Part shown: positions 23,095 through 48,544 of the stretch, piece after piece
How positions within the stretch are numbered: position 1 is the stretch's first letter
How the letters are laid out: each line of letters starts with the position of its first letter
Assembly: GCA_019232935.1 (NCBI GenBank)
Contig: JAFAMZ010000013.1
Span: 1-48,544, forward strand
DNA length: 48,544 nucleotides
Direction of reading: 5' to 3'
Source: Silvibacterium sp.
GTDB lineage: Bacteria; Acidobacteriota; Terriglobia; Terriglobales; Acidobacteriaceae
The notes under the pieces: generated by a model
The model's database searches: none
Told to the model about the DNA's origin: nothing
The model's input: the letters and a program-made list of their open reading frames with translations, nothing else
Made by a program: the position numbers and the translations under genes

Positions 23095-23904
23095 TTACCT
23101 GCGAAGGCTCCGTACCGCATCGGCCACGATAGGTGGGGTGACTGCATGCACAAACTTTTTCAACACCGATGGCCTCACTTCAACGTCTTCAGGCCGCTTC
23201 ATGAAGAGCGTCGAATGCGAATCGTTCATCTCCTCCTCGGGACGGCCATTGGAGTAGTAGTAGGTTGCGATCGACTTGCGGGCGCGCTCCGGCGGACAGG
23301 CGAGAGGCGTCGGGTGTCCATGGTAAGAGGTGGAAGTGGTGCTGAAGATAGCGCAGCGATTGAAGATGGGCAAAATCTTCAGCTCGCAGGCTGTCATGTC
23401 CCTGTTCCATAGTTCGAAATGCCCGCCGTACTCTTCTTTCCAGTCCTTATTGAGATAGACAAGTACGTTGATTCGCCGTTCCAGATTCAGCTTGGCGTGA
23501 TGGTTGAAGTCGGCGTGCACATCGAGCTTTCCGCCGCGCCTGATCTGGTGCAGTCCTCCGCCGACGTAATAGGGATCGGGAATTACTCCCTTGATCCCGG
23601 TGAGCACCTCAAGAAACTGAAGCATGGGGCGGCTGTTGAGGAAGTAGAGAACGTCCCGGTCCCCGGTGGGCAGCTTTTCGACTACATCGAACGCCAGCTT
23701 CTTTTCGTTGGGATTATCGAATTGCTGCCACTTCAGTTCTTTAGGTTCGGGAAACTCACGCAGGGCAGCTTCGGCGGCCTCGGCAGGCAGAAAGTCGTCA
23801 AAGTAGATATGCGGGAAAGGTTTGCCGTTTTTGTACCTTTCCGCATTTTCCCGGGCCAGACGCTCCAGCTTCAACGCAAATTCATCGCTCAGCAATTCCT
23901 TCAT
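23095..23904 (-). CDS. 2OG-Fe(II) oxygenase (prolyl-hydroxylase-like)
   Basis: GGGLH, HAD (HxD), YLN..W..EYGG.., distal HG, R.SIA.YYY. Confidence 0.9.
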   Translation of the reverse strand: MKELLSDEFALKLERLARENAERYKNGKPFPHIYFDDFLPAEAAEAALREFPEPKELKWQQFDNPNEKKLAFDVVEKLPTGDRDVLYFLNSRPMLQFLEVLTGIKGVIPDPYYVGGGLHQIRRGGKLDVHADFNHHAKLNLERRINVLVYLNKDWKEEYGGHFELWNRDMTACELKILPIFNRCAIFSTTSTSYHGHPTPLACPPERARKSIATYYYSNGRPEEEMNDSHSTLFMKRPEDVEVRPSVLKKFVHAVTPPIVADAVRSLRR

Positions 23905-24043
23905 GGATTTTCCTTGTTGTTGGGGGCGCGATCGAGCGCCGCGTTCAGCTATCCGATGGGTTCAAGTCCAGTCTAAAAAGCGTTCCCGCCATGGGCAATA
24001 ACACTTAAGTTCGGGAAGTAACCGGTCCGGAGTAGCGGCGGCT

Positions 24044-25444
24044 CTACCACGGGATCCCGGCAAATGGCGATCCGAAACCCAGAGACCAGCGAAGCGCCAG
24101 GGCCGCGGCCAGCGAAACAACGAAGGCCAGTGTGAGCCATGCATCCTGTGCAAACAGGCGAATGCGCTCGCGATACGCGCTGTACAGGCCGACGAAATAC
24201 ATTGGCAAGTCGGCGACTGCAACCGCCAACACCGCTCCGGTCATTCCCAGGAAATGAAAGCCGACCGGCAGTGCTATGTAAAGCGAAACGCAATACACAA
24301 AGTAGCCCAGCGCGTTGTAATGTGCCTTCTGCAGTGACAAAATCGCGGGGAACGTGGTGCTGTAAAGAAGGGTGTGCCAGAGGCCGAGCGCGAGAATGCC
24401 GATCATCCATGCGGCCGCATGATAACGATGGTCGTAGACATGGGTGATGAAGAGGTCGCCGGTGCAGATGACCAGGATGAGCATGAGGCCGCCGAGGGCA
24501 AGCACCAGCTTCCGGTATTTGAGAAGGATGTCTTGATATTCGCGGCGGGGCCTGGCGGAGAACCGGGCAATGAAAGGGAACCCCACACGGCCGCAGAATT
24601 GAAGAATGATCTGGCGAGGAACGTCTGATATCTGGAACGCAATGCCGTAGATGCCCAGCAACTGGAAGGAGATGAGTTTGGCAAGAATGAGCCGGTCGGA
24701 CTGACCGGCGAGAAAGGTAAGCCCGGTACCGATAAGAATCCAACGGCCAAACTTTACCAGCGCGCGCAGCGACTCGGTGTGCCAGGTGAAACGGGGCCTG
24801 AGCTCCGGCATAAGGAAATAGCTGGCGATGGTGCGCACTAATTCAGATATGAGACGGCCGGCCACCAGCGCCATCAGCGAAGGCTGATAAAGCGCCCACA
24901 CCAGCGTGACCACGAATTGCACGATCTGTTGCAGAAGCTCGAGCGCCGAGATCTTGCCGACTCCCAGGTGGCGCGCGAGACTGAGCAGGCTTGTGGAAGT
25001 GAATCCGGAGATAGCGTTGCCGAACCCGAGGGCCGGCAAAACCCATAGCAGCCGGGAATCATGGTAGAAATGCGCGACCGGCCAGGCGAGCGGAATGGTG
25101 ATGAGAAAGAGTGCTATGCCGCGGACGACCTGCACGGTCCATGCGGTATTGAGGAATGTAAGGTTGTCGCCGCGCGGGTCCTGGATGATGCTGTCCTGCA
25201 GGCCGATGTGCGAGAACAGGTACATTCCAAGAATGATGGTGCTCACGAGGGTGAGAACGCCGAAGAGTTCAGGCGCAAACAGACGGCTGAGCACGATGCT
25301 GCTGACCAGCCTCAGCGCAAGCGCCAGCCCATAAGAGATGGTGACAAAATATGTGCCGCGGACGGCCTTCGATTCGAGCGCACGAAGCGGCGAATCGTCC
25401 AGATCCTCGCGGGGCGATGGAGTAAGCTCCGCGTTGACGGTCAT
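24044..25444 (-). CDS. Oligosaccharide flippase (Wzx-like)
   Basis: About 12 TM segments; LSRLFAPELFG, TAWTVQVVRG, DRLILAK, LGIYGIA typical of the polysaccharide export (MOP) family. Confidence 0.88.
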   Translation of the reverse strand: MTVNAELTPSPREDLDDSPLRALESKAVRGTYFVTISYGLALALRLVSSIVLSRLFAPELFGVLTLVSTIILGMYLFSHIGLQDSIIQDPRGDNLTFLNTAWTVQVVRGIALFLITIPLAWPVAHFYHDSRLLWVLPALGFGNAISGFTSTSLLSLARHLGVGKISALELLQQIVQFVVTLVWALYQPSLMALVAGRLISELVRTIASYFLMPELRPRFTWHTESLRALVKFGRWILIGTGLTFLAGQSDRLILAKLISFQLLGIYGIAFQISDVPRQIILQFCGRVGFPFIARFSARPRREYQDILLKYRKLVLALGGLMLILVICTGDLFITHVYDHRYHAAAWMIGILALGLWHTLLYSTTFPAILSLQKAHYNALGYFVYCVSLYIALPVGFHFLGMTGAVLAVAVADLPMYFVGLYSAYRERIRLFAQDAWLTLAFVVSLAAALALRWSLGFGSPFAGIPW

Positions 25445-25685: not shown

Positions 25686-26582
25686 ATGCCGACCACTCCC
25701 ACGCAAATGCACCTGACTGCTTCCATTTTTAATGCCGCAAATCCCGGGTTTCGGGAAAACTTTGATGAAAAGCCTTTTGAATTTACTCACTGCTTTTGCG
25801 CCGATCATCCTCTGTTCCAGTTATCGCGACTTCGTCAATTAATTGACGATCCAGTTACGCGCCCCGGCATCTACTACGACGCCGGAGAAATCGGCATCGG
25901 GCAGAGATGGGATTCCGTGCCCGAGCGCAAACAGACGCTCGAGGAAACCTTCGACAGAATTGACAATGCCGGAGCGTGGATCCTGATGAAGCGCGTCCAC
26001 AAAGACCCCGATTACAGCGAAGTGCTTGACGAGTGCCTCAAGGAAGTTCAGCGCCTGAGCGGACGCCAGATCGATCAGGACAAAAAGAGTCAGGAGGCGA
26101 TCATCTTTCTGACGTCGCCCAATCGGGTGACTTCCTACCATATCGATCGCGAGTGCAACTTTTTGATGCAGGTGCGGGGCGAAAAGGAAATCAGCGTCTT
26201 CGATCGCAACGACCGTGAGGTACTTCCGGAAACCGAACTGGAGACCTTCTGGTCGAAAGACAACAACGCCGGAGTCTACAAGCCGCAGTATCAGAACCGG
26301 GCCACCGTATTTCTGATGAAGCCGGGCACGGGCGTACACATTCCGGTGAATTTTCCGCACTGGCTGAAGAACGGCAATAACGTCTCTATCTCGCTGAGTA
26401 TCAGCTATCAGTACAAGGATTGGCAGCGTAAGTATGTCTTCCAGGCGAACTACTATCTGAGGAAGATGGGACTGAATCCGACGCCTCCAGGCAAGTCGGC
26501 GCTTCTGGATAATACGAAGCGGATGGTTATGCAGGCCGGATTTGCCGGCAAGAAATTGTTGCAGCAAAAGCGGGCCAACTAA
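25686..26582 (+). CDS. JmjC/cupin-like Fe(II)-dependent oxygenase 1
   Basis: VTSYHIDRECNFLMQVRGEK (HxD), PG.GVHIP..FPHW (distal His), SISLS; SD GAGGAG. Confidence 0.8.
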   Translation: MPTTPTQMHLTASIFNAANPGFRENFDEKPFEFTHCFCADHPLFQLSRLRQLIDDPVTRPGIYYDAGEIGIGQRWDSVPERKQTLEETFDRIDNAGAWILMKRVHKDPDYSEVLDECLKEVQRLSGRQIDQDKKSQEAIIFLTSPNRVTSYHIDRECNFLMQVRGEKEISVFDRNDREVLPETELETFWSKDNNAGVYKPQYQNRATVFLMKPGTGVHIPVNFPHWLKNGNNVSISLSISYQYKDWQRKYVFQANYYLRKMGLNPTPPGKSALLDNTKRMVMQAGFAGKKLLQQKRAN

Positions 26583-26653: not shown

Positions 26654-27427
26654 ATGAAAACGATATTGCAACGAGCTGTTGCGATTGTGCGAGACCTCTA
26701 CACCTACCGCTACTTCAACGATCCTGAGAAGGCGCCACGCTATCGAGGCGTATATGCAACTTTTGAAGAGGCGGAAAGGGCCATTCCGAAAGGCAGGCCC
26801 GAGGGATTCAACCTGGACGAAGTGCCGGAGTTCTTTATCGGCAAGCAGTTTCTCTTCAACCCCCAGGACTACCCGGTACTTGTCTGGCTCTCACAGGCTT
26901 TCGAGCCCGGATGCAGAGTCTTCGACCTGGGGGGCGGATTCGGCCAGTGCTACTACAAATACCGGGAGTACATCCGCTATCCAGAGGGTCTGGAGTGGAC
27001 GGTATGCGATGTGGAGTCGTTTGCCTCGCGCGGGCCGGAGTTCGCCCGGCAACAGAATGCCGACGCTCTGCACTTCACCACCGAACGCGCTGCAGCGGAT
27101 GGTTCGACCATCTACCTCACGAACGGCGCGCTGCAGTATATCGAGCCGGACCTTCCGGAGATCCTCGGTCAGCTTTCATCGAAGCCCCGTCATGTACTGG
27201 TCAACAGGGTGCCCCTGTATGACGGCGAACCATATTTCAGCGTACAGTCGTCGCTTCATTCCTTCGTGGTGCACAAGGTAGGAAATACCACCCGGCTTAT
27301 CCGCGGCATGGAAGCGTTGGGATACTCGGCGATCGATCAGTGGACGCTGCCGCGTTCGATGCACGTCTACTTTCATCCCGAGTGCGATGTGCCGAGTTTT
27401 CGCGGGTTCTACTTCCGAAAGAGCTGA
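26654..27427 (+). CDS. SAM-dependent methyltransferase (TIGR04325/LIC12133-like)
   Basis: DYPVL.WL, VFDLGGGFG, WTVCDV, GALQY motifs. Confidence 0.8.
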   Translation: MKTILQRAVAIVRDLYTYRYFNDPEKAPRYRGVYATFEEAERAIPKGRPEGFNLDEVPEFFIGKQFLFNPQDYPVLVWLSQAFEPGCRVFDLGGGFGQCYYKYREYIRYPEGLEWTVCDVESFASRGPEFARQQNADALHFTTERAAADGSTIYLTNGALQYIEPDLPEILGQLSSKPRHVLVNRVPLYDGEPYFSVQSSLHSFVVHKVGNTTRLIRGMEALGYSAIDQWTLPRSMHVYFHPECDVPSFRGFYFRKS

Positions 27428-27433: not shown

Positions 27434-29380
27434 TCAATTGAGCCGGCCGCGCAGCGCCTGCGACAGGCTCGGACCTTTGAGCCCCGCAGCCTGGTCGCGT
27501 TCTTCTTCCGGCTGGGTATCGCCTTCACCGGGCGCGAGAAACAGATTGCTTTCGAAAGCATATTGCCGGGTGTACAGATCGTAGTACTGGCCGCGGGCGG
27601 AAAGCAGTTCGGCATGCGTACCGCGCTCCTGCACCATGCCGCTGTCGATAACCAGGATTTGATCGGCGCGGCGGATGGTTGAGAGCCGGTGCGCGATGAC
27701 AAAGGTGGTGCGCCCGCGCATCAGATACGACAGTCCTTCCTGAATGAGCGCTTCGGATTCCGAGTCGAGGCTCGAAGTCGCTTCATCGAGGATGAGAATA
27801 CGCGGATCGGCGAGGATAGCGCGGGCGATCGAGATGCGCTGCCGCTGGCCTCCCGAGAGTTTCACACCCCGCTCGCCGACAATGGTGTCGTAGCCCTCGG
27901 GGAAGCGGGTAGCGAATTCATCGACGCGGGCGATGCGGGCCGCTTCGAGGATCTCCTCTTCGCGGGCATCGGGGCGGGAGAATGCGACGTTGTCGCGAAT
28001 GGTCCCGTCGAAGAGGAACGACTCCTGCAACACGACGCCAAGATGGGAGCGGTAGCTGCCCAGTTCGATGGTTGTGAGGTCGATGCCATCGAGGAGAATC
28101 TTGCCGCTATCGGGATTATGAAATGCGGTGATCAGGCTGATGATGGTCGATTTGCCCGATCCGGAGGGGCCGACAAGAGCCGTCACGGTCCCGGGCGGAG
28201 CGATGAACGAGACGCCGCGTAGCACCGGCTTGTCAGCGTGATAGGCAAAGTGAAGGTCCTCGAACCGAACTTCGCCGATTAGTCCGCCGGGCGGAATGAT
28301 ATACGTCCGGCGCGGATCATCATCTTCTTCGGCTTCGGCCAGCAGTTCGCGGGTGCGGTCGAGCCCGGCGATGGCCTCGGTGAGCTGGGTTCCCACGGAC
28401 ACCACCTGGAATGCCGGCGCAATGAGATAGGCCAGAAACACCGCATAGGCGCCATACTGGCCGATGGTGAGCTCGTGCCCAAGGTATTCCCGGGTTCCGA
28501 TGAACATGACTAGCGCGCCGATCAGTCCGACAACGACAGTTGACGACACGCTCATGAAGGAAATGGCGGTGATCGACCGCATGATGTTGGCCAGCAGGCG
28601 GCGCACCCCGCCGGCAAAGACGGCTGATTCGCGGGCTTCAGCGCGGTATCCCTTGACGACGCGGACTCCCCCGAGCGACTCGGTGAGCCGTCCGGTGACA
28701 TCGCCGTAGATTTTTGCGCGCTCGTGGTAAATCGGCCGGATGGTGCCAAAGACCTTGCGCAGGGCGAGCGTGAATCCGACCATGATGAGCGTGGCCACGA
28801 TGGTCATCTTGAAGCTGATGCTGATCAGCACGCCCAGAGACATCAGCGCGGTCAACGTTCCGCCAAGGAACTCCATCAGGCCGGTGCCCATCAGGTTGCG
28901 CACACCTTCGACGTCAGACATGATGCGCGAGACGAGCACGCCGGTGCGGTTGGCGTCGTAGAAGGCGATCGGCAGGCGCCCGATATGCGCCTGAATCTGG
29001 ATGCGCAGGTCGGTGATGAGCTCCCACGCCGATTTGGATAGAGACTGCGCGAGAGCGAATGCCGTAATCGCCTGTATGGCGGTAGCCAGAAGCACGCCGC
29101 CGACCAGCGGGAGCAGGAGATATCCGTGCCTGGCAATCATCACCTTGTCGATGAGGACCTTGGTTGAGAGGGGCAGAACCAGTCCCGAGGCGCGATTGAT
29201 GATCAGCAGGATGAGCCCAAAGAGCAGGAGCCATTTCCGGGGGCGCATGATGCTCCAGATTTCGGGCATCACGTTGCGCAGCTGCTCCCGCCGCGTTCTG
29301 ATCGGGGCGGGCCGCTGAAGCACCTGGGGTTCGGTAGGCCGCGATACAGGCGGCGCAGTCTGGTCAGCCAATTGGGTCAT
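27434..29380 (-). CDS. ABC exporter, fused TMD-NBD (MsbA-like)
   Basis: TM domain; Walker A GPSGSGKS, LSGGQ signature, Walker B ILILDE, IAHRLSTI; likely ATG at 29380. Confidence 0.93.
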   Translation of the reverse strand: MTQLADQTAPPVSRPTEPQVLQRPAPIRTRREQLRNVMPEIWSIMRPRKWLLLFGLILLIINRASGLVLPLSTKVLIDKVMIARHGYLLLPLVGGVLLATAIQAITAFALAQSLSKSAWELITDLRIQIQAHIGRLPIAFYDANRTGVLVSRIMSDVEGVRNLMGTGLMEFLGGTLTALMSLGVLISISFKMTIVATLIMVGFTLALRKVFGTIRPIYHERAKIYGDVTGRLTESLGGVRVVKGYRAEARESAVFAGGVRRLLANIMRSITAISFMSVSSTVVVGLIGALVMFIGTREYLGHELTIGQYGAYAVFLAYLIAPAFQVVSVGTQLTEAIAGLDRTRELLAEAEEDDDPRRTYIIPPGGLIGEVRFEDLHFAYHADKPVLRGVSFIAPPGTVTALVGPSGSGKSTIISLITAFHNPDSGKILLDGIDLTTIELGSYRSHLGVVLQESFLFDGTIRDNVAFSRPDAREEEILEAARIARVDEFATRFPEGYDTIVGERGVKLSGGQRQRISIARAILADPRILILDEATSSLDSESEALIQEGLSYLMRGRTTFVIAHRLSTIRRADQILVIDSGMVQERGTHAELLSARGQYYDLYTRQYAFESNLFLAPGEGDTQPEEERDQAAGLKGPSLSQALRGRLN

Positions 29381-29809: not shown

Positions 29810-30691
29810 TCACCGGGCCGCCAGCCGCTTCAATCTTCTCATCGCGCGGTAGCCGCCGCTCTTGATACTGTCAAGCACCGCGGATGTTCCGGGGCGGCGC
29901 GGATGAAGACCGGCTTTGCGCAGGACGTTGTTGATGCGATACGCGTCCGCTTTCGGATCGAAGACGCGTTTGAAGTTCATGCTGAGTGAGACCGATACAG
30001 CAGGGCCGTTCTCAACCCAGTGAGGAAAGATCACCGGATTGCTCACGCCGGTTCCCGGAGACAGCTCAAACCGCCAGGCCTTCTGCTCGAGACTCTCGCG
30101 ATATTTCGGGGCCTTCGTGTCGTCGCCCGACCAGAATTTCTCAAGCTCGATGTCGCTCAGAACCTCCGGATCGTCGCCGTCGAAGATGTGCACCGTTTTC
30201 GAACCCTGGATCTGCAAAAGAAAATTCGCTTCGCCATCGATGTGATAGGGCGTAACCCGCCCCGGCGATGTGATCAGAATGGTCATGACCGGATCGCGGT
30301 AAGTGCGCTTCAGGTCGATGTTGCAAAGGCGGCCGAGCTCATCCATGCAGGCCTGGAGAAAGCTTCGGTACTCGTCATATTCCTGAACGCGCTTCAGCAT
30401 GACCAGAGAATTGGATTCACCAATATTCTCGAGCACCTGGACCAGCGACTTGCCCTCCGGGACCCCCCGCCATTTTTCCCCGGGAGCGGTGCTGCCGGAC
30501 TCGAAGTAGTATCCCCCGGATTTGGCTTCGGCCCGAGCGGCGAGCCTGGAAAGCATCGGCCAGCCGAAAAGCTCAGACTGATGGACCGAGTGGGTCAGCG
30601 GAAAGGGCCGTCGGTCGAACCCGGTCTGAAACGTCTGCTGCGAAGGCAGGTCGCTCGGAAAGTAATGGGGAACAATGGTGACGGCATTCAT
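29810..30691 (-). CDS. JmjC/cupin-like Fe(II)-dependent oxygenase 2 (paralog of 25686-26582)
   Basis: VTPYHIDGEANFLLQIQGSK, LE.FWS, PGTGV..PV.FPHW.ENG, VS.SLS shared with oxygenase 1. Confidence 0.8.
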   Translation of the reverse strand: MNAVTIVPHYFPSDLPSQQTFQTGFDRRPFPLTHSVHQSELFGWPMLSRLAARAEAKSGGYYFESGSTAPGEKWRGVPEGKSLVQVLENIGESNSLVMLKRVQEYDEYRSFLQACMDELGRLCNIDLKRTYRDPVMTILITSPGRVTPYHIDGEANFLLQIQGSKTVHIFDGDDPEVLSDIELEKFWSGDDTKAPKYRESLEQKAWRFELSPGTGVSNPVIFPHWVENGPAVSVSLSMNFKRVFDPKADAYRINNVLRKAGLHPRRPGTSAVLDSIKSGGYRAMRRLKRLAAR

Positions 30692-31402: not shown

Positions 31403-32935
31403 ATGGGCGCTAATTTAGGAATTACCTCTGTCTTTGGTCAACAGGCTGCGAAAACCGATCTGCGGCCGACGAGCCTGAGCGGGCTGAGTTCCGCGAAGAG
31501 AGGCTTGGCCACCCAGCCGGTGGTGAACGCAGTCCTGATGATGGCGACCGATGTGTGCGCGGTCATTGCCGCGGTTTACCTTGCATTGCATCTTCATGCA
31601 GGACATGCGGCTGGCAGCTGGTCCGGGCTGCACCGGGCTATTGCCGCCGGGCCGGCGATGCTGGCGCAGCTTGCCTATGTGTTGTGGTTCATCACCACTC
31701 TGCTGGTTCTAGGCTGGCACGATGGGCTTTACGGACGTCTGCAGAGCGACTCGATTCTTCACGAACAGCGCATGACCGTGCAGGCCTGCCTGAACGCCGG
31801 CCTGCTGCTGTGTGGCGCAATGTACATGACCCACGACGCCACGACGCCACGAGCCGTGGTGATTTCGTTGGTGTGCTTCACTACTCCCCTGCTCTGCCTC
31901 CTGCGCGGATTCTGGCGTTACTCGCTGCATCGTGATTTTCAGAAGGGCATCGGCACACGAAACGTTCTTATCCTCGGCACCGGCCACATGAGTGACGCTG
32001 TGCGCAGGCAGATACTGAAGCATCGCCAGCGCCTGGGGCGCATCTTTAAGGGCTTCGTCGAACTTCCCGGAGAAGCAGCTCCCCACGCCGACTCGAAGGA
32101 GGTCCTCGGCAGTCTTTATCAACTCCGTCATCTGGTCCGCCAGCACTTTGTCGACGAGATCATCATTGCCGGCAGTTGCGACACGGCTCAGGTCCTGGAG
32201 CTGGTCGAGATTGCCGCCGATCTGGGAATCGAAGTGCTCGCCATCCCGGGACTGTTTGAGGACATGGCTCCCGACGCGCAGATCTTCTACCTGGGTGACT
32301 TCCCAGTGATGACGATTCATCGGCGCAACGACCGTGCGCTTGCTCTGTTGCTGAAGAGGGCGGTGGACATTGTGCTCTCGTCGATTCTCCTCGCCATGCT
32401 GGCCCCGCTCTTCGTGGCCATCGCCCTGCTAGTAAAAATGACCTCGCCGGGGCCGGCCTTTTATGTTTCCGAACGCATCGGCAAAAAGGGCAGGGTATTC
32501 CGGCTTTGGAAATTCAGGACGATGAAGTTGGGCGCCGACCGCATGAAGGCCGCTCTGGCTTCAGCAAACGAGCGCAATGGCATTCTCTTCAAGATTAAGA
32601 ACGATCCGCGGGTCACTCCCGTGGGCCGGCTGCTGCGGAAATTCAGTCTGGATGAGCTGCCGCAGCTCTTCAATGTGCTGCTGGGCGACATGAGCCTGGT
32701 GGGGCCGCGACCGCCGCTCGCCAATGAGGTGGCGCAGTATGAGGTGAAGCACTATCGCAGGCTCGACGTCCTGCCAGGCCTTACAGGACTTTGGCAGGTG
32801 CGCGCCAGACACGATCCCTCCTTCGATCAGTATGTGGCGTTGGACATCGCTTACGTCGAGAACTGGAATTTCTGGATGGACCTGAAAATCCTGGTCCGGA
32901 CTGCAGAGGTGGTTTTGCGGGGCACAGGCTCCTAG
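31403..32935 (+). CDS. Priming polyprenyl-phosphate sugar phosphotransferase (WcaJ/WbaP family)
   Basis: N-terminal TMs, VLILG.G nucleotide-binding-like domain, KRAVD, KFRTM, DPRVT, LDELPQL.NVL.GDMSLVGPRP, PGLTGLWQV. Confidence 0.93.
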   Translation: MGANLGITSVFGQQAAKTDLRPTSLSGLSSAKRGLATQPVVNAVLMMATDVCAVIAAVYLALHLHAGHAAGSWSGLHRAIAAGPAMLAQLAYVLWFITTLLVLGWHDGLYGRLQSDSILHEQRMTVQACLNAGLLLCGAMYMTHDATTPRAVVISLVCFTTPLLCLLRGFWRYSLHRDFQKGIGTRNVLILGTGHMSDAVRRQILKHRQRLGRIFKGFVELPGEAAPHADSKEVLGSLYQLRHLVRQHFVDEIIIAGSCDTAQVLELVEIAADLGIEVLAIPGLFEDMAPDAQIFYLGDFPVMTIHRRNDRALALLLKRAVDIVLSSILLAMLAPLFVAIALLVKMTSPGPAFYVSERIGKKGRVFRLWKFRTMKLGADRMKAALASANERNGILFKIKNDPRVTPVGRLLRKFSLDELPQLFNVLLGDMSLVGPRPPLANEVAQYEVKHYRRLDVLPGLTGLWQVRARHDPSFDQYVALDIAYVENWNFWMDLKILVRTAEVVLRGTGS

Positions 32936-40093: not shown

Positions 40094-40837
40094 CTATTGG
40101 CGTGTTTTATTGCGCTCCTCCCACTCGAACATGTAAACACGCCACTCCCCGCGCTGAATCGCCAGCGCGCCGATGAATTCGTTGCCGAGATCGAGCGAAA
40201 ACAATGACCACCGTGTGATTTCGCCCGCATCCCATCGGCATTCCAGCAACCCGGAAGCGTCTTCTGCGGAGAGGCTTACGGCGAAGGAGTCGAGCGGAAT
40301 CGACAGGCCTTTCCCGTGGGCCTTGAGGAAAGCCTCCTTGCGGGTCCAGCATCGCAGGAAGGCGCGGAGTTTTCCGGAAGAACCGAAGGCACGGAGAGCA
40401 GCTATCTCTCGCTCGGAAAAATTCGATTGCGCGATAAGTTCCAGATCGCTTATCGGTCGCACCGTTTCCACATCCACGCCCAGATCGGCACTCAGGCAAA
40501 CACCGAGCAGCGTGAGGCCTTCGGTGTGCGAAAGATTGAAACGCACACGCCCCTCAGGCTGCAACGATTCAGGATTCATCAGCTCGGGCTTCCCGAATTC
40601 GTTCACGGCAAAGATAAGATTTTCGGGCGCCAGTCCTGTGTACGCTCCGAGAAGCAGCCGCATGCGCGCGTGATCTGCGATGAAATTTTGGGTCAGATGC
40701 GGAAACCGGAATCGCGCCGCGCGATCGCGTTCCTCAGCCCCAAGCAAGGGCGCATATTGCGCAAGGTCGGCGGCGGGCTCGGGCCGAAGTTTCCAGAGAT
40801 GGACTTCCCCGATGGCCAGCCTTGCCGGTCGAATCAG
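40094..40837 (-). CDS. Sfp-type 4'-phosphopantetheinyl transferase
   Basis: GKP, FNLSHT, GVDVE, WTRKEAFLKA.G.GL; N-terminal EVHLW in frame upstream of TTG 40747; probable CTG start at 40837 with SD AGGAGG. Confidence 0.93.
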   Translation of the reverse strand: MIRPARLAIGEVHLWKLRPEPAADLAQYAPLLGAEERDRAARFRFPHLTQNFIADHARMRLLLGAYTGLAPENLIFAVNEFGKPELMNPESLQPEGRVRFNLSHTEGLTLLGVCLSADLGVDVETVRPISDLELIAQSNFSEREIAALRAFGSSGKLRAFLRCWTRKEAFLKAHGKGLSIPLDSFAVSLSAEDASGLLECRWDAGEITRWSLFSLDLGNEFIGALAIQRGEWRVYMFEWEERNKTRQ

Positions 40838-43800
40838 GCGTTCGCCTCCTGTGCTTTGCCAAGACTCTGGCGCACCAGCTCGCCGACCACGCTGAGGTTC
40901 GGCTCAATAAACATGGTTTCATGGTTCCCGGGAGCCCAGTGCACCTCGACTCCCCGGGCAGCCAGGGCGCCCCAGCCGCAGGCGGGCTCCGCGCCCGGAA
41001 TATATGGCGCATCGGTGGCACGAATGAGCGTAATCCGGCCAGGAAACGGCTGGCCGTTGTAGGAGCGGATAGACTCGAAGGTCTGCAGGCTGACGTTGTG
41101 CATGAATGCAGGCAGCGGCAACCCGAGCGACTGGAAGAGCCGCTGCGCCATGGCCCAGTTCTTCAGGTAGAGCCTCGACCGCATGGAAAGCAGCTTCTGT
41201 TTGATGGCGTTCCACGCGTACCTGGCTTTTCCGCCTGCCGTGAGGGACTGCAACTTTCCGCGATGGAATCGAAATTTCCTGTACAGACGGGCGCGCAGCG
41301 CCATCTCCGGCATATGCTTCTGGGTTTCGGCCAACTCGGCTGCGTAACCCGGACGCCAGGAGTCGAACAGGACGATCATTCCAACTTCTTCGCCGGCGTC
41401 GATAAGCTTCCTCGCCGTCTCGACCGCCAGCGGCCCGGCGGCGCACCATCCGCCGATGTAATACGGACCCTTTGGCTGAAGAGCGCGAATCTCCTTTGCA
41501 TACGACTCAACTCGCTCGGGCATGGTCATCGACTGGTTCAGCTCGCGGAGGCCGTAGAAGGGCTGGTCCTCGCCTATCACCTTCGGGAGCCCGCCGTAAA
41601 GCAGGTACGAGTGAATAAGAAAGAACGGCGGCCTCGACCCTTTGGGCTGCACCGGCACGAGCGGCGAATAGAGCGTTCGCCCGCGAACGATATCCGCCAG
41701 CTGCTCGATCGTGGGAGCGTTAAAAATAGTCGTGATCGGCAGCGAGAGCGAGAAGCTCCGGTTGATGTTGGCGAAGAGCCGCACGATCATCAGAGAATAG
41801 CCGCCCAGCGTAAAGAAATTGGTGCGAATGCCGATGGGCCGGACGCCCAGCACTGTCTCCCAGATGGACACGAGGTTTTTCTCGAGTTCGTCGCGGGGCG
41901 GCACGTAGCTTGAATCTGCCGGTTCTTCCTGGGCGACCGATCCCGGGGCAGGCAGGATGCCGATATCGGCTGACCCGTCGATCCCGCGTGGTATGGCGGT
42001 AACGGCGATAACATCGGCGGAGGCCAGGTGCAGAGGCGCCGAGGACTTGAGGTGCGCGCGGAGGGCTGCAGTTGACGGCTGCTGACCGTTACGGCCTGCC
42101 ACCCAGGCGGCCAGCACGGGCGCCCCGGCCTTATCAGGGACTACGGCGGCTTCGGCATCGGCAACTGATGGCCCGGCCAGTAGCAGATCCTCGAGATCTT
42201 CGAGGTGGAGACGATGGCCGTGCAGCGTGGCGGAACGGTTCAGCCGGCCGGCTAGTTCGAATCCGTTCGCGGGCGAGTAGCGCGCCGTGTAGCCGGGCCG
42301 GAGCTGCTCTAAGTCGCGCTCGACCACGAGCTCGCCGGGAACTCCGAACGGCGCGGGGGAACCGGAGGCATCGAGGATGCGCAGAGTTTCCCCGGGCAGC
42401 GGCGCGAGCACACATCCCGGACGTGCGGCATCAAGCCGAATCGATGAAAATGGGCCGGCGGTCTGCGGCGCCGAGACAAGCAGCCACATCCGGCAGCTTG
42501 ACTTCGTGAGGCGGGCAGCTTCGGCCGAGGACAGCCGGGCTCCACGGCAAATGAGATTCAGCCTGCGGTCGCCCGCCCAGCCATCGAGCATCTGCGACCA
42601 TTCAGCGGGCTTGCCGAATGCGAACGACGCCTGCTCGCGATCGATCACGGAGCGGAAATGCTCCGGCTTTTCCGATCCCGGACAAACGATGGTCGCCCCG
42701 GCAAGCAGCGGCAGCAGCAGGTCCGTCCAGGCATCTGTCTGTGCGAGCGCCGTGCTTTCAGTGGTGCATGATACGAATACGGCGTCGCCCGGCCTGATCC
42801 CGAGCGATTGCGCTGCGGCCGTCATGCTTCTTACCGTGGCAGCCTGGGATAGCGATATGGATTCGTAACTGCCGTCGTTACGACTTACGACCCCCACCCA
42901 TGCAGTCTGGGCAGCGGCTGCTTCGGGTAAACATGAAATAGCTTCGATCGCGTTTCCGGGTGCGCTTCCAAGCTGGGCAAAAGCGGTGATGCCCGTTCCG
43001 CTGGCGGCGAATGCGGTATCGGCGAGGCACAGTGCGGGCATCAATTCGCCCCGGATCTTCCGCCACTCGGCAGCGCTTATATTGGCGGGCACCGGCAGAA
43101 CCGGCGCTCCAAGGCGCAAAGCGGCCAGCAGCGCGGCGATCGAGTCGGCATCAGGCTCGACTCTCACTGCTATGGTCTGCCCGATTCCGATTCCGCGCTG
43201 CTGCATAGCATGAGCGAACGCGATGCTTCGATTGCGGAGTTCTCTCCAGCTTGAGCGCGAGTCTCCCGCGATTAGCGCAGGGGATTCGCCGAGGGCGGCA
43301 GCCTGCGAGTCGAAGATCTGTGCGACAGATGTGCGCGATGGCTGCTCCGGCGCGGCCGCAATCGAGGACTGTGCTGCGGCGGAAATCAGCGCAGACTCCT
43401 CGTGGCCGGAAACAAGTGGCAAAGCCGAAACCGCCAGCGTGTCGTCGCCCAGTACCGCTTCAAGGACGCGCGTGTATTGATCCAGCAGGCGAAGAACGCG
43501 CTCGCGCTCGAAGAGCAGCGTGTTGTATTCGATCTGCAGGCGCGGGCCTTCGTTTCGCTCGACGACGCTCACCAGCATGTCGAAATTCACTCCGCCGCTA
43601 ACTGACGGGCGCGGAATAATGCGCAGCTCGCCGGCAGTCTGGGGCTGCATGAACGCTTTCTGATATACGAAGTAGACCTGCAGGAACTGCGAGGTCGCGC
43701 CGGCCTGGTCGAGCTGGAACTGCTCGGCGAGGCGCGAGAATGGCAGGTCCTGGTGGGCGTAGGCTTTCGTACTCCAATCGATGACGCGGTTCAGTAACTC

Positions 43801-44826
43801 GCGATAGCTGGGATTGCCGCGCACATCGGCCAGAATCACCTGGGGATGCGCGAAACGGCCGACCACGTTTTCCATGCCGGGCTGGGTGCGATTGGCGATC
43901 GTCGAGCCCAGCAGGAATTCCGCTTGGCCGGTGTAGCGTGTGATGAGCCCCTCAAAGGCCGCCAGCAGCACCTGGTGCATGGTGGCGTCGTGCTGGCGGC
44001 AATAAGCCTTGAGGCGCCCGGTCAGCTCCGGTGACAGCAGGCGTCCTTCGATATTGCCGGGCGCACTCTTTTGTGCCGTGCGCGGATGGTCGGTCGGCAG
44101 GTCGATGGCCGGCATCTCTCGCCGGATGTGGTCTTTCCAGAAGGCCAGAGCGGACTGTGCGGCCTCGCTCTCCAGCCACGACTGCTGCCACACCGTGAAG
44201 TCCGCAAACTGGAACGGCAGCTCTGGCAACTCTGGCTCCCGCTTTTCGATGGCGGCGGCATACAGCAGCGCGAAGTCGCGAATGAGGATGCCATTCGACC
44301 AGCCGTCGCAGGCAATGTGATGAACGGTGAAGGCGAGAAAATGTTCGCTGTCTGTAACGTGAATCAGCCGGACAAAAAGCGCGGGGCCATCGCCAAGATC
44401 GAGATGAATGCGACTATGCTCATGAATGAGTTGCTCGGCCCGGTCAACGCGCTCGGCCCTGGGGAGCGTTCGCAGGTCGGAAACCGCAAATTCGCAGGCC
44501 GCCTCTTCCGATATCACCTGGGAAAGCACGCCTTCAACCATGCGGAATGTCGTGCGCAACGCTTCATGGCGCAGCACCAGCGCGCGTACAGCCTGTTCGG
44601 CGGCCTGGTCCTCGATCGGTCCTTCAAGGCGAAAGGCGACCGCCATATTCGAGGCAGTCGAAGCCCCTGCCAGCTGGTCGAGAAGCCAATAGCGGCTCTG
44701 CTCGAGGCCTGCCGGGAAGACATACACGCCGTCCGGGGATGGTTCCACAGACTCCGATCTGTCGAGGACGGGCGCGTCTTCTGGGTTCACGTTCTGTACC
44801 GCACTAACCGAAGAACGATAAGACAT
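40834..44826 (-). CDS. NRPS: C - degenerate A - T - TE(Cys)
   Basis: C motifs RHEALRT, HHIACDG, QFADF..WQ; A-shaped region lacking the P-loop, YGPTE, TGD and catalytic Lys; T FFTLGGYSL; TE GWCAAG, LFDS, PGNH; start 44826 or 44865. Confidence 0.9.
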   Translation of the reverse strand: MSYRSSVSAVQNVNPEDAPVLDRSESVEPSPDGVYVFPAGLEQSRYWLLDQLAGASTASNMAVAFRLEGPIEDQAAEQAVRALVLRHEALRTTFRMVEGVLSQVISEEAACEFAVSDLRTLPRAERVDRAEQLIHEHSRIHLDLGDGPALFVRLIHVTDSEHFLAFTVHHIACDGWSNGILIRDFALLYAAAIEKREPELPELPFQFADFTVWQQSWLESEAAQSALAFWKDHIRREMPAIDLPTDHPRTAQKSAPGNIEGRLLSPELTGRLKAYCRQHDATMHQVLLAAFEGLITRYTGQAEFLLGSTIANRTQPGMENVVGRFAHPQVILADVRGNPSYRELLNRVIDWSTKAYAHQDLPFSRLAEQFQLDQAGATSQFLQVYFVYQKAFMQPQTAGELRIIPRPSVSGGVNFDMLVSVVERNEGPRLQIEYNTLLFERERVLRLLDQYTRVLEAVLGDDTLAVSALPLVSGHEESALISAAAQSSIAAAPEQPSRTSVAQIFDSQAAALGESPALIAGDSRSSWRELRNRSIAFAHAMQQRGIGIGQTIAVRVEPDADSIAALLAALRLGAPVLPVPANISAAEWRKIRGELMPALCLADTAFAASGTGITAFAQLGSAPGNAIEAISCLPEAAAAQTAWVGVVSRNDGSYESISLSQAATVRSMTAAAQSLGIRPGDAVFVSCTTESTALAQTDAWTDLLLPLLAGATIVCPGSEKPEHFRSVIDREQASFAFGKPAEWSQMLDGWAGDRRLNLICRGARLSSAEAARLTKSSCRMWLLVSAPQTAGPFSSIRLDAARPGCVLAPLPGETLRILDASGSPAPFGVPGELVVERDLEQLRPGYTARYSPANGFELAGRLNRSATLHGHRLHLEDLEDLLLAGPSVADAEAAVVPDKAGAPVLAAWVAGRNGQQPSTAALRAHLKSSAPLHLASADVIAVTAIPRGIDGSADIGILPAPGSVAQEEPADSSYVPPRDELEKNLVSIWETVLGVRPIGIRTNFFTLGGYSLMIVRLFANINRSFSLSLPITTIFNAPTIEQLADIVRGRTLYSPLVPVQPKGSRPPFFLIHSYLLYGGLPKVIGEDQPFYGLRELNQSMTMPERVESYAKEIRALQPKGPYYIGGWCAAGPLAVETARKLIDAGEEVGMIVLFDSWRPGYAAELAETQKHMPEMALRARLYRKFRFHRGKLQSLTAGGKARYAWNAIKQKLLSMRSRLYLKNWAMAQRLFQSLGLPLPAFMHNVSLQTFESIRSYNGQPFPGRITLIRATDAPYIPGAEPACGWGALAARGVEVHWAPGNHETMFIEPNLSVVGELVRQSLGKAQEANA

Positions 44827-44888
44827 ACGATTCGAACCAGGCAAACATGCTGCAAGGTACCGCAAGATACTGCAATGAGTCCTGAGTG

Positions 44889-47800
44889 CTATTGCAATAC
44901 TGTCCGCGGCCTGCGATGCAGCGAGCGGGGAACCGGCTGGATCGTCGTTCCGGTCGCGGCAGGTCTGTCATCACTTTTCTCTTCGATCTGTGCGCAGATC
45001 GCCGCGATTGTCTTGTACTGAAAGATATGACGAGCGTTCATCCTGATTCCGGCCTGGTTCGCCAGGGTGTTGATCCGGAAGATCATCAGGGAGTCACCGC
45101 CCAACTCAAAGATACTATCTTCGACGCTAACCTCCTTCAGGTTTAAAACATTGGCCCATATCCGGGCAAGCTTTTCCTCCTGAGGGTTACGAGGATAAAC
45201 AACAGCCCGCTCCCGCATCAGCTGCTCCGGCTGCGGCGCCGGCAGCGCCCGCCGGTCCACCTTGCCGTTGACGGTGCGCGGGAAGCTCTCGACTGCCATG
45301 ACAGCTGCTGGCTGCATATATTCCGGCAATTGCGTCTTCAGCCATGCCCGCAGCTCGGCAATCAGGCTGCCTGTGTCGCCGGCGCCCTCAGGAATGACGT
45401 AGGCGGCCAGCCTTTTATCGCCCGGAGCGTCGTGCTCGGTCTTCCAGTCCGTCCGCACGCAGGCCACCGCTGCGCGGACCAGGGGCGACCGCTCCAGCGC
45501 ATATTCGATCTCGGCGAGCTCAATCCGATATCCGCGAACCTTGACCTGGGTATCGGCGCGCCCCAGGAACTCGACGGTCCCGTCCGCGCGGTACCGCGCC
45601 AGGTCTCCGGTGCGGTAGAGGCGCTCGGTCAGCCCCGGCGCAAAGGTATGGGTGATGAACTTCTCCGCGGTAAGCTCCGGCCCATTCAGGTATCCGAGCG
45701 AGACGCCGTCGCCGCCGGCAAACAGCTCTCCGGTAACTCCCACCGGAACCGGCTGCATCGCGGAGTCCACAATGTAGATGCGAGTATTGCCGATCGGACG
45801 CCCGATGGGGACGGTCCCCGAGGTCAGGCTGTCGAGTGTGATGGTATGGCAGCAAGTGAAGGTCGTGTTTTCAGTCGGGCCGTAGCCATTGATCAGCCGC
45901 AGATGCGGTAGCTCTTCAAGCACGCGGCGAACGTGGGTGACCGACAGCACGTCTCCGCCGGCGAGCAGCTGCCGCAGCGGGCGCAGCGACTCGAGATGGT
46001 TCGTCACCATGAGATGGAAGAGCGCTGCCGTCAGCCATATCGTGGTGATCCCGTTGCCAAGGATGATGGCGCCGATATCTTCCGGCGTGACACGGCCAGC
46101 CGGAGCGACAACCAGGCGGCCGCCGTTAAGCAGCGCGCCCCAGATTTCGAATGTGGCGGCGTCGAACGACAGTGGAGCAAGCTGGAGAAAGACCTCCTCG
46201 GGCCGGAAGCTTGCGAAGCTGTTGTTCTTCACCAGGCGTAGCACCGCCCGATGAGGCACCAGCACGCCCTTGGGGTTGCCCGTCGAGCCGGAGGTGTACA
46301 TGACATAAGCCAGCTCCTCCGGGCCGCCGCTGTGGACAGGATCGGCTCCGGACTCGAGCGCAATGGCGGCCCAGTCGGCGTCAAGGCAGATGATATTTGT
46401 GGCAAGCTTGGGAAGCGTCGTGGCGATCGAGCGAGTGGTGAGCAGCGATTGCGCCTGTGAGTCTTCGACCAGGAAACTGAGCCGCGAGGCCGGGTAGCTG
46501 GCATCCACGGGAACGTAAGCCGCCCCGGCTTTGAGAATCGCCAGCAGCCCCACAATGACTTCGAGCGACCGGTCGAGGCAGATGGCGACCCGCATACCTG
46601 GCTTCACGCCGGACTTTCCGAGAAACTGCGCGAGCTGGTTGGCCTTTTCGTTCAGCTCGGCATAGGTCAGTGACTGCTGGCCGAAGGTCAGAGCAACCGC
46701 ACCCGGAGTGCTGCGCGCCTGCTGCTCGAATACGCGATGGATCGAGCTGGCGCGCGGATATTCGGTTGTGGTCTGGTTCCATTCGTAAAGGAGCTCGTTC
46801 CGCTGTGCGACCGTCAACAGCGAGACCTGCCCGGCTGGTTGCGCAGCATTATCGATAAAGGCCTGCAGGATGGATTCGAGGTGTCCGCGCCAACGCTCGA
46901 TCGTCGGTTCGTCGAAAAGGCCGGTGTTGTAGTCCACGTCCAGCCACAGCTCGTTGCCGCGGTCGATGAAGTTGAAGAAAAGATCCATGTTGACGTGGGT
47001 CTTGCCATTGGCGGCCAGATCGATGTTCAGCCCATCGAACTTCAATCCGGCGCCGACGGTCTCCACGTTGAACTGCACCTCGACCAGCGGCAGCCGCGAG
47101 GAGTCGCGCTCGATCTTCAGCTTGCGCAGCAGCGTGCCATAGGTGTAGCTCTGGTGGTCCTGGGCATCGAGCAGCTTCTTGCGTGCCTGCTTGAAGTACT
47201 CGGCGAGAGTCTGGCTCGCGTCGAAGCGGCTGCGGATGGGCAGGAAGTTCACGCAGTGGCCGACCAGGGAGCCGCCGTTTTCGATCAGCGACTGACCGGC
47301 CATCGGGATGCCGATGACCACGTCATCCTGTTGTGACAGGCGATGAACGAGCTGCGAGAAGCCCGCCAGGAGCGTCGCAAAGAGCGTGCTGCCCTGTTTT
47401 GCGCCCGCCTTTTTGACGGCTTTCAGAAACTCGGGCGGAAAGACAAAGCGCTTTGACGCGCCTGCATTGCCGCGCATCGCCGGACGCGGACGGTCGGTCG
47501 GCAGTTGCAGCACCGAAGGCAGCGTCTTGAATTCGTCGAGCCAGTAAGTCTCGACTTCGCTGTTCTCTTCGGAGGCATGCCGCGCGTGCTCCTCTGCCGC
47601 ATACTTGCTGAAGGCCAGCGGCGCAGCGAGGGAAGCGGCTTTTCCGGCAACTGCGGCGTTGTAGAACTCCGCCAGCTCGGAATAGAGAACGTTGGTCGAC
47701 CATCCGTCGAAGATGACGTGATGTGCAGTAAAGATGAAGACGTGCTCGGCCGGCGCGAGCTTCACCAGGAGCACCCGGAACAGCGGCCCGTGCTGGAGAT

Positions 47801-48544
47801 CGAACGGGGTCGATGCCTGCTCATAGATCACGTCTTTCAGCTTGGCCTCACGGGCATCCACAGCCAGGGAGCTGAGGTCTTCGCGTTCGAGCGGAAGGGG
47901 GATGCCGGCCGGGATGTGTACCGTTTCACCATCCTCGCGGATCACCGCGCGAAGCGCTTCGTGCCTCGCCACAATCTTCTCGAGACTGCCAAGGAACGCC
48001 GCTTCGTTGAGCTCTCCGGTGAGGCGCAGAGAGGTGCCTTCGTTGAAGGCGCAATTGGCTTCATCGCCAAGCTGCGTGCCGAAGAGAATCTCGCGCTGCG
48101 GCTCGGTGATGGGAATGTCGCGGTCGACAGGTGCTGACAGCGGATCGGGCGCAGCGGTCTTCTCTGGCGAGGTCGACGCTGTGCTCGCATCCCCGTGTCC
48201 AATCGCCTGCCCGGCGATCATCTCTTTCAGACTCGACCGGAAGGCCTCGCGCACAAAGTTCAGATCGTCGTCGGTGTGCGCCGTCGTCAGGAAGCAGGGG
48301 AAGCCTTCCTGGATGTGAATGCCCTTTTCGCGCAGATGGTAGTAGAGCATGCGCGCGAGCTTCGGCTCGGCAGGAGCGCTCATGAAAAACCACGACGAGA
48401 AGGTCTCGATCGTCGTCGGATATGAGAACTCTCGGAACATCGCGTTCAGGTCGCCGACCATTCCTGCGGTCTTTGCCGCAAGATCGGTCTGCAGCCCCGG
48501 GCCCGACTCTTTGATGTGCTCCAGGCTGGCGCGCACTGCCGCCA
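44889..48544 (-). CDS. Hybrid (PKS-)NRPS, 3' part: class III aminotransferase domain end - C - A (Val-like code) - T; 5' end outside the window
   Basis: Open to the edge; FSSWF..LYYHLREKGIHI.EG.PCFLTTAHT resembles McyE/MycA-type AMT C-termini; HHVIFDG; complete A motifs; T FELGGDSL. Confidence 0.92.
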   Translation of the reverse strand, partial: AAVRASLEHIKESGPGLQTDLAAKTAGMVGDLNAMFREFSYPTTIETFSSWFFMSAPAEPKLARMLYYHLREKGIHIQEGFPCFLTTAHTDDDLNFVREAFRSSLKEMIAGQAIGHGDASTASTSPEKTAAPDPLSAPVDRDIPITEPQREILFGTQLGDEANCAFNEGTSLRLTGELNEAAFLGSLEKIVARHEALRAVIREDGETVHIPAGIPLPLEREDLSSLAVDAREAKLKDVIYEQASTPFDLQHGPLFRVLLVKLAPAEHVFIFTAHHVIFDGWSTNVLYSELAEFYNAAVAGKAASLAAPLAFSKYAAEEHARHASEENSEVETYWLDEFKTLPSVLQLPTDRPRPAMRGNAGASKRFVFPPEFLKAVKKAGAKQGSTLFATLLAGFSQLVHRLSQQDDVVIGIPMAGQSLIENGGSLVGHCVNFLPIRSRFDASQTLAEYFKQARKKLLDAQDHQSYTYGTLLRKLKIERDSSRLPLVEVQFNVETVGAGLKFDGLNIDLAANGKTHVNMDLFFNFIDRGNELWLDVDYNTGLFDEPTIERWRGHLESILQAFIDNAAQPAGQVSLLTVAQRNELLYEWNQTTTEYPRASSIHRVFEQQARSTPGAVALTFGQQSLTYAELNEKANQLAQFLGKSGVKPGMRVAICLDRSLEVIVGLLAILKAGAAYVPVDASYPASRLSFLVEDSQAQSLLTTRSIATTLPKLATNIICLDADWAAIALESGADPVHSGGPEELAYVMYTSGSTGNPKGVLVPHRAVLRLVKNNSFASFRPEEVFLQLAPLSFDAATFEIWGALLNGGRLVVAPAGRVTPEDIGAIILGNGITTIWLTAALFHLMVTNHLESLRPLRQLLAGGDVLSVTHVRRVLEELPHLRLINGYGPTENTTFTCCHTITLDSLTSGTVPIGRPIGNTRIYIVDSAMQPVPVGVTGELFAGGDGVSLGYLNGPELTAEKFITHTFAPGLTERLYRTGDLARYRADGTVEFLGRADTQVKVRGYRIELAEIEYALERSPLVRAAVACVRTDWKTEHDAPGDKRLAAYVIPEGAGDTGSLIAELRAWLKTQLPEYMQPAAVMAVESFPRTVNGKVDRRALPAPQPEQLMRERAVVYPRNPQEEKLARIWANVLNLKEVSVEDSIFELGGDSLMIFRINTLANQAGIRMNARHIFQYKTIAAICAQIEEKSDDRPAATGTTIQPVPRSLHRRPRTVLQ

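Follow-up and report, generated by a model that had tools for sequence, protein, structure and literature searches.

A PKS-NRPS assembly line nested in an exopolysaccharide locus of Silvibacterium and its relatives

Genes and domains of the locus

We analysed a 48,544-nucleotide stretch of DNA from Silvibacterium sp. (the window), which is the whole of contig C211 in an assembly that is 75% complete. Its right-hand part carries nonribosomal peptide synthetase (NRPS) genes, the end of a polyketide synthase (PKS)-NRPS gene and tailoring genes, interleaved with the genes of a surface-glycan locus (Table 1). The locus is real, conserved and, as far as we searched, apparently undescribed in print, a new combination of known parts. 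All window genes listed in Table 1 are intact open reading frames (ORFs) at the positions given there, including every gene named in an earlier note on this DNA, and the Wzy-like gene indeed lies between NRPS3 and NRPS2. A contig from sequencing run X1, possibly the source sample, bridges positions 35798-41242 with zero differences, and the gene order recurs in relatives, so that it is due neither to chance nor to misassembly. The last ORF runs off the contig at 48544, leaving only the tail of the aminotransferase (AMT) domain of PKS-NRPS1 in the window. Its missing 5' part is also found on contigs C68 and C98 of the same assembly, which overlap each other and C403 at 99-100% identity. However, C98 matches the end of the window (48361-48544, within the AMT) at 80% identity over 184 nt only, so the C403-C68-C98 chain probably represents a co-binned relative or a second copy of the locus, and the full architecture was taken from relatives. 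For this we surveyed 34 genomes of the genus, many of them incomplete and with kin copies that are not independent, and mapped gene order in 12 loci.

In relatives, full-length PKS-NRPS1 comprises about 2,800 amino acids in the order T0-KS-AT-ACP-AMT-C-A-T (Pfam scans): a lone N-terminal carrier domain, then KS-AT-ACP, a class-III AMT with its pyridoxal phosphate (PLP) lysine and C-A-T, as is also seen on C68/C98. The scanned copies retain an intact KS region, the AT serine and malonyl-type motif, the AMT PLP lysine, the C-domain histidines and the A-domain motifs, and the closest PDB match of the AMT, with a relative's domain as query, is the MycA AMT (E 2e-124). The A-domain code DAFWLGGTFK, which we take to specify valine, is identical in the window and in all 13 copies extracted from relatives; the NRPS3 code, DIMQIGCIYK, is Gly-like. 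These codes bear out the Val- and Gly-like domains of the earlier note. Its obligatory Gly residue does not stand, as NRPS3 is present in 11 of the 17 line-bearing genomes only; an obligatory starter-loading role of NRPS3 was ruled out as well, the gene not being found in G003, G020, G024, G025 and G027. Active A domains number one or two per line. None of the genus loci mapped encodes a fatty-acyl AMP ligase or a lipid starter domain, and the combination of such a starter with a multi-module peptide chain, typical of iturin and mycosubtilin, does not occur here. The rightward extension for which the note had called, followed through relatives, yielded KS, AT and the glycosyltransferases WecG and GT2, and no fatty-acyl AMP ligase. 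In several assemblies (G032 L030:14309-14375; L051, L058, L059, L085) stops or frameshifts interrupt the PKS gene, reflecting either sequencing error or decay.

In NRPS2, the C-domain motif HHxxxDG is intact, whereas the A domain has lost A3, A5, A7 and the A10 lysine in 10 of 10 aligned orthologues and diverges faster than the C, T and TE domains; judged by these motifs, NRPS2 activates no amino acid. NRPS3 is a paralogue of the A-T-TE part of NRPS2. Both window TEs have Cys in place of the Ser nucleophile, and motif scans place this putative Cys nucleophile, with Asp and His residues, in 25 of 25 genus-type TE sequences. The NRPS2 TE has the motif Trp-Cys-Ala/Leu and a conserved Asp after strand 6, rather than the triad Asp in the loop after strand 7 and the Gln-Cys-Asn motif of the SulM/ObiF type (PMC11298585). 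Its lid of about 100 residues is aromatic and basic, with a net charge of +14 (+4 to +17 across sequences). A T-TE model (pLDDT 82, 42 rows) gave AB3403, EntF and the Pks13 TE as top Foldseek matches. The phosphopantetheinyl transferase (PPTase) reading frame extends without interruption to a CTG that overlaps the stop codon of NRPS2 (40834-40850, minus strand) and lies 7 nt behind AGGAGG, a possible non-canonical, translationally coupled start.

The two cupins scored 24-25 bits with PF13621 (cut-off 27.4) and retain the HxD...H metal motifs. For the TIGR04325 methyltransferase, fold searches ended in a tie among generic class I methyltransferases (top match: Z 16.2, rmsd 3.2, 181 aligned); a PDB sequence match was sought and not found, so there is no close solved relative, and the searched parts of the literature held one match to TIGR04325, on Leptospira. 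A locus copy of the ABC exporter is present in 16 of the 17 line-bearing genomes, beside a genus-wide paralogue, and is not in the line-less loci mapped. The 147-aa protein adjoins NRPS3 in G032, G010, G017 and G018 and is absent from the G005 and G022 loci.

Among the glycan genes, the priming transferase scored 402.6 bits with TIGR03025 (cut-off 295.6) and Wzx 156.7 bits with PF13440, above its cut-off; a close copy of Wzx was not found in G032. RmlD (TIGR01214), the 2OG-Fe(II) oxygenase (PF13640) and the C, A, T and TE domains of the NRPSs likewise exceed their curated cut-offs. The Wzy/WaaL-like gene reached 22.5 bits with PF04932, below the cut-off of 31.7, and fell into an O-antigen-ligase cluster of the ESM Atlas at 0.99 (207/256 features), which does not distinguish polymerase from ligase. 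Proteins resembling the 177-aa membrane protein are all unnamed. In each of the 12 mapped loci the order is UpxY, WecG-STAS, GT2, Wza, Wzc, PKS-NRPS1, with NRPS2 and the PPTase after PKS-NRPS1 wherever the stretch reaches that far. The wzc and PKS genes share one transcription direction behind the UpxY antiterminator, which scored at its cut-off, and the intergenic gaps of the operon in G004 are 28 (wzc-PKS), 72 and 27 bp by our own gene calls. The other window genes adjoin this operon or lie up to about 90 kb away. In the window's own assembly Wza and Wzc are on C68, with an uncertain link to the window. A scan found 9 promoter-like sites, against 4.5 +/- 2.0 in shuffles, and terminators at chance level, and was unused as evidence.

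Table 1. Features of the locus in the window, and the cassette that replaces the line in two relatives
Feature	Position	Strand	Remarks
PKS-NRPS1, 3' part: class-III AMT tail, C, A (DAFWLGGTFK), T	44889..48544	-	cut by contig end
NRPS2: C, dead A, T, Cys-type TE with basic lid	40834..44865	-	domain and motif scans
Sfp-type PPTase (PF01648 above cut-off)	40094..40837	-	inferred CTG start
177-aa membrane protein, no known family	39525..40058	+	glycan core; kept in G005, G022
Wzy/WaaL-like membrane protein	38008..39462	-	glycan core; kept in line-less loci
NRPS3: decayed C remnant, A (DIMQIGCIYK), T, Cys-type TE	34656..37982	+	optional; 11/17 line-bearing genomes
147-aa protein, signal-peptide-like start, no family	34009..34452	-	adjoins NRPS3 in relatives
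RmlD dTDP-4-dehydrorhamnose reductase (TIGR01214)	33089..34003	+	kept in line-less G005, G022
Priming polyprenyl glycosylphosphotransferase (TIGR03025)	31403..32935	+	glycan core
Cupin B, JmjC-like, 38% identical to cupin A	29810..30691	-	line module
MsbA-like ABC exporter	27434..29380	-	exporter domains above cut-off
TIGR04325 methyltransferase, class I SAM fold	26654..27427	+	line module; above cut-off
Cupin A, JmjC/FIH-like	25686..26582	+	line module
Wzx flippase (PF13440)	24044..25444	-	glycan core
2OG-Fe(II) oxygenase, prolyl-hydroxylase-like (PF13640)	23095..23904	-	tracks glycan core
Replacement cassette	G005 L196:2132-14110; G007 L205:4862-17747		

Nesting, deletion and replacement of the line within the genus

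An NRPS2 orthologue is present in 17 of the 34 genus genomes and Wzc in 21. All 17 NRPS2-bearing genomes have this Wzc, and the orthologue occurs in none of the 13 genomes without it. The cupin family is found in 18 genomes, the 17 line-bearing ones and G016, although the copies of G020 and G027 are all distant ones that lie elsewhere than in the locus; TIGR04325 occurs in 14 genomes, all line-bearing (3 of the 14 outside the locus), and NRPS3 in 11, all among the same 17. Wzc without the line is seen in G005 (99% complete), G022 (100%), G007 (92%) and the fragmented G012. In these four genomes the AMT was not found, and cupins, methyltransferase and NRPS3 were found in none of them; the cupins and the methyltransferase go with the line, as the note had proposed. 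The same cannot be said of the oxygenase at 23095, which the note had also assigned to the peptide: it is present in the same 21 genomes as Wzc, is retained in the four line-less ones and follows the glycan genes, not the line. Beside it, G032, G010, G017, G018, G005, G022 and G012 encode a large secreted Ig/DUF11 protein (window 20396-22822, minus strand), a matrix protein and, speculatively, the substrate of this prolyl-hydroxylase-like enzyme.

Two kinds of line-less loci can be distinguished. G022 keeps the oxygenase, Wzx, the priming transferase, RmlD, the Wzy-like gene, the membrane protein and everything from Wzc onward, and is without cupin A-methyltransferase-ABC exporter-cupin B, NRPS3, and PPTase-NRPS2-PKS, that is, at three separate sites; remnants of the line-module genes were not detected in this genome. 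G005 is without the same three blocks and the local Wzx (a 59% copy lies elsewhere) and keeps the PPTase. Behind wzc, G005 and G007 have a cassette for a haem-oxygenase-like protein, hydrolases, an ACP, two AMP ligases, a short-chain dehydrogenase, a PLP decarboxylase, MetY and MetA homologues and a squalene-cyclase-like protein, with an extra P450-like gene in G007. The G005 hydrolase pair, one member of which has Cys at the elbow, resembles hydrolases 2 and 1 of exosortase-A EPS (exopolysaccharide) loci; the scores with TIGR03100 and TIGR03101 (46.2 vs 168.5 and 74.7 vs 202.8 bits) mark them as relatives, not members. Gene calling recovered just the first hydrolase in G007.

A tree built on four proteins of the glycan core, with 15 genomes, placed G005 as sister to G032 and G007 with G017/G028, both with strong support, and rejected monophyly of the three line-less loci (AU p 5e-116). 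Since the line-less loci do not form one clade, the line was lost or replaced more than once. Its nesting with Wzc, the deletion in G022 and the swap in G005 and G007 together indicate that it is an optional, interchangeable module of the glycan locus. The functional linkage claimed by the earlier note is supported by the 17 of 17 co-occurrence with Wzc, the position of the PKS behind wzc in all 12 loci and the swapped slot.

A further carrier-based glycan-acylation set, comprising FkbH, ACP and MBOAT, lies in the same locus in G017 (L045:2642-4757, L042:5193-6779), G025 and G028. A pair of a FAD oxidoreductase and an ATP-grasp protein adjoins NRPS3 in G004 (L035:13829-16492), and the same pair, together with a cupin, a PPTase and a GT4, flanks a different NRPS in G016 (L232:10859-20000).

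Related lines in other lineages

Outside the genus we opened 41 loci with AMT lines, leaving 9 further matches unopened; the plasmid loci were picked from the top matches, and the remaining ones came from even samples of 301, 301, 251, 251 and 300 genomes. A clear glycan-assembly context was found in 16 of the 41, in Alphaproteobacteria, Verrucomicrobiota, Bacteroidota and Gammaproteobacteria (G250, G143, G223; six alphaproteobacterial plasmid loci; G762, G771, G696, G849; G1092, G1062; G1216). Three had a partial context (G133, G1090, G361), 14 had no glycan genes (G221, G356, G259, G119, L147, L149, G745, G512, G363, G1231, G1420, G1281, G1295, G1010), and 8 were left out because their lines are long or built differently, several of them being visible over only 20 kb. 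Outside lines commonly take the form A-T, KS-AT-ACP-AMT-C-A(Gly)-T, C-(A)-T-TE. A quick tree without bootstrap groups the genus Val A domain with the loader A domains of outside lines (SH-aLRT 99), which suggests that it replaced the Gly A domain and has come to load both carriers; the same pattern could arise if the domains cluster by substrate. In the Aliiroseovarius glycan-locus line, Val-type A motifs stand at both positions.

A Cys-TE was found in 5 of 6 alphaproteobacterial and 3 of 3 readable verrucomicrobial glycan-locus lines. In two Rhizobium lines and in Jannaschia, Gln replaces the catalytic His of the terminal C domain, and the Rhodobacter and Loktanella TEs are without the aligned His. 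In G1216 a TE-less AMT line lies beside a Wzy gene and is flanked by a hydrolase pair similar to that of G005, and the line of G762 shares codon-to-codon overlaps with genes for glycosyltransferase and WcaF-like acyltransferase. Other related lines lie in metal islands: in G221 (L159-L160) between a CusA/CzcA pump and MbnB/TglH/ChrH-DUF2063-ECF-DoxX genes, in Variovorax RA8 (L147) with copper oxidases, ATPases and three TIGR04325 genes, and in Spirosoma (L149) with copper ATPases. They differ in having a Thr-type loader and a Ser-TE or no TE, and these A-T-KS-AT-ACP-AMT lines are possibly an undescribed family of diamine chalkophores.

Many lines, with and without glycan genes, are accompanied by a membrane-anchored PAF-acetylhydrolase-like protein (CocE/NonD in Rhodobacterales; L036-L037 of G004, L150, L151), a candidate periplasmic transferase or trimming enzyme; neither the window's assembly nor the loci of G032 and G010 contain it. 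Alphaproteobacterial glycan-PKS-NRPS loci are adjoined by curli (csg) genes and Crp/Fnr and LuxR-type regulators (L148:1-7939, L151:1-3196), consistent with a joint biofilm programme.

A possible peptide graft and its alternatives

We propose that the line likely makes an amine-rich diamino-acyl-Val(-Gly) unit and that this unit is grafted onto the glycan, a reading that we would as readily believe as doubt. As the A-domain code and tree suggest, one Val-type A domain would load both the start carrier T0 and its own T. Malonyl extension and transamination, an established chemistry of KS-AT-ACP-AMT domains whose motifs are intact here, would give 3,4-diamino-5-methylhexanoyl, which would then be condensed with Val. 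By calculation, the unmodified acids would have masses near 160.12 (diamino-methylhexanoate), 259.19 (with Val) and 316.21 Da (with Val and Gly). The cupins may hydroxylate and the TIGR04325 enzyme may methylate the tethered unit, NRPS2 with its dead A domain would take over the chain and, where NRPS3 is present, its Cys-TE may shuttle Gly onto the NRPS2 carrier. Transfer to the glycan is the weakest step, predicted and unproven: the Cys-TE would act as an acyltransferase onto a membrane-bound glycan acceptor, making the unit a positively charged side group, and, equally weakly, the ABC exporter would move the acylated lipid-linked intermediate.

This graft draws on the nesting with Wzc, the PKS gene behind wzc, the module deletion in G022 and the slot swap in G005/G007, as well as on the basic TE lid, the Val-type A motifs at both positions in Aliiroseovarius and the hydrolase pair of G1216. 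It also draws on the prevalence of Cys-TEs in the genus and in glycan-locus lines, compared with about 2% of known TEs (PMC13288461), and on the Pks13 TE, which releases its product onto trehalose and sets a precedent for TE transfer to a sugar (PMC12933137). Several observations weigh against it. The Cys-TEs studied so far form rings and do not pass their chains to sugars (PMC11298585, PMC13288461). Genomes that lose the line also lose a dedicated ABC exporter, for which in-line cytoplasmic decoration flipped by Wzx would have no need. Six glycan-context lines have a Ser-TE (G250, G143, G223, G133, G1092, L249), G119 has a Cys-TE without visible glycan genes, and basic lids occur in the non-glycan relatives G221 and G259 and in 3 of 7 outgroup TEs, which rules out either feature as an exclusive glycan marker. 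The 14 related lines without glycan genes include some in copper or metal islands, where a cupin, the PAF-acetylhydrolase-like protein or TIGR04325 still travels with the line. The cassette of G005 and G007 faces wzc rather than extending its operon. Of these points, the co-lost exporter and the relatives in metal islands weigh most against the graft. What the sequences show is gene content, linkage, motifs and module boundaries, from which the graft is predicted.

Alternatively, the product could be a small peptide that stays free, either linear or cyclised by the Cys-TE (a seven-membered diazepanedione formed through attack of the beta-amine would be one example), that leaves the cell through the ABC transporter and is merely co-regulated with slime, likely a metal chelator or matrix signal. 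We consider this, the main rival of the graft, rather unlikely as the true product; in its favour are the exporter copy that tracks the line in 16 of 17 genomes and the lines in copper and metal islands without glycan genes (L147, L149, G221). A vicinal diamine is a metal-binding group, and characterised Cys-TEs form rings (PMC11298585, PMC13288461). It fits less well with module genes scattered over three sites among glycan genes instead of one block, with a slot refilled by an ACP/hydrolase cassette of the EPS-locus type, with the different build of the metal-island lines and with the codon-to-codon overlap in G762. Because the exporter is co-lost with the line and related lines exist outside glycan loci, a free product keeps a real share of probability. 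A peptide joined to a short glycan or lipid apart from the polymer, resembling a glycopeptide or glycopeptidolipid and made by some locus transferases and a Wzy/WaaL-like protein, would suit the MsbA-like exporter, the basic, aromatic TE lid and the two to three Wzy/WaaL-like paralogues and PMT-like membrane transferases of G004, G017 and G003. We find it improbable, as the mapped genus loci hold no fatty-acyl AMP ligase or lipid starter and the operon partners Wza and Wzc handle polymers. Finally, the line may be a passenger inserted once into the glycan locus and functionally unconnected to it. Glycan loci are recombination hot spots, all genus copies may stem from one insertion, and the glycan locus survives without the line in G022. 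Nevertheless, 16 glycan loci from four other lineages also contain short AMT lines, the C, T and TE domains of NRPS2 are conserved while its A domain decays, and G005 retains the PPTase for its replacement cassette, which makes a passenger highly improbable.

Several known systems share parts of this design. MycA/McyE-type PKS-NRPSs, which make free lipopeptides, have the same KS/ACP-AMT-C-A-T order and the closest AMT in MycA; in contrast, the line described here has no fatty-acyl loader, one or two active A domains, a dead-A terminal module with a Cys-TE and a glycan-locus setting. SyrB1/SyrC/SyrE and CmaA/CmaE shuttle an amino acid to an A-less module, and NRPS3 and NRPS2 likewise combine an A-T unit with a Cys hydrolase and an acceptor without a working A domain. 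Unlike SyrC/CmaE, the hydrolase is here a fused TE domain, 6 of the 17 line-bearing genomes have no NRPS3 and the shuttling is putative. Dlt, the carrier-protein-dependent D-alanylation of surface polymers, and the ACP/ligase/hydrolase genes of exosortase-A EPS loci also make a thioester-tethered unit beside a polymer pathway, whereas here a multi-module PKS-NRPS builds the unit and the conserved core has no MBOAT. In mycobacterial glycopeptidolipids, NRPS, PKS, methyltransferases and glycosyltransferases likewise yield a surface molecule, but sugars are added to a lipopeptide and neither Wzx/Wzy/Wza/Wzc nor AMT is involved. The alpha/beta-hydrolase fold of the TEs is shared with the Cys-TEs of AB3403, ObiF1, SulM and MacB and with the Pks13 TE, which is a Ser enzyme; ObiF, SulM and MacB cyclise, and the lid here has about 100 residues and is basic. 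AB3403 has its Cys nucleophile with Asp after strand 6, as here (PMC11298585). A conserved orphan cluster of Roseobacter, of uncharacterised product, combines PKS/NRPS genes with a glycosyltransferase and a PPTase (PMC4337385, PMC5014874). Its likely example among glycan genes, L248, matches by gene order only and differs in having no AMT motif found, a Ser-type TE and the order PKS-GT2-NRPS, so that identity of the two is not supported.

Our literature search, from which subscription journals were largely and supplements wholly excluded, found nothing on this locus family or on NRPS-decorated exopolysaccharide, and the main-text parts covered of a 2026 survey of Acidobacteriota clusters (PMC13712943) do not mention the family. 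Acidobacterial EPS has been analysed after extraction with 2 M NaOH (PMC5259719), a treatment expected to strip off groups held by ester bonds. More broadly, and with slightly more doubt than belief, we suggest that at least four phyla use short PKS-NRPSs as plug-in tailoring machines for Wzy-type EPS: a diamino-acyl peptide would be grafted onto the repeat unit by interchangeable off-loaders (Cys-thioesterase, Cys hydrolase pair or WcaF-like acyltransferase), and the resulting peptido-polysaccharides, cationic and metal-binding, would have lost these groups whenever EPS was extracted with alkali. If true, the graft would join assembly-line natural products with surface-glycan tailoring, two subjects usually kept separate. 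A widespread orphan cluster family (Acidobacteriaceae, rhizobia, Rhodobacterales, Verrucomicrobiota) would gain a function, as would the TIGR04325 methyltransferases and possibly the hydrolase pair linked to exosortase. The graft would also explain the absence of a free antibiotic from such clusters and would predict cationic, metal-binding slime in abundant acid-soil bacteria. The natural deletion in G022, the natural swap in G005 and G007 and the existence of cultured carriers make it directly testable. The NRPS2 orthologue is present in records named Silvibacterium acidisoli, S. dinghuense, Paracidobacterium acidisoli and Acidicapsa ligni, and the related line in Rhizobium and Rhodobacter strains. 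Even if the product is free, the predicted diamino-acyl-Val metabolite, co-regulated with slime, would be new.

The left part of the window (325-22822) holds ordinary housekeeping genes, including GH9, an HU-like protein, murQ-like, parA/parB, gidB, folC, accD and cobO, and a TonB-dependent receptor.

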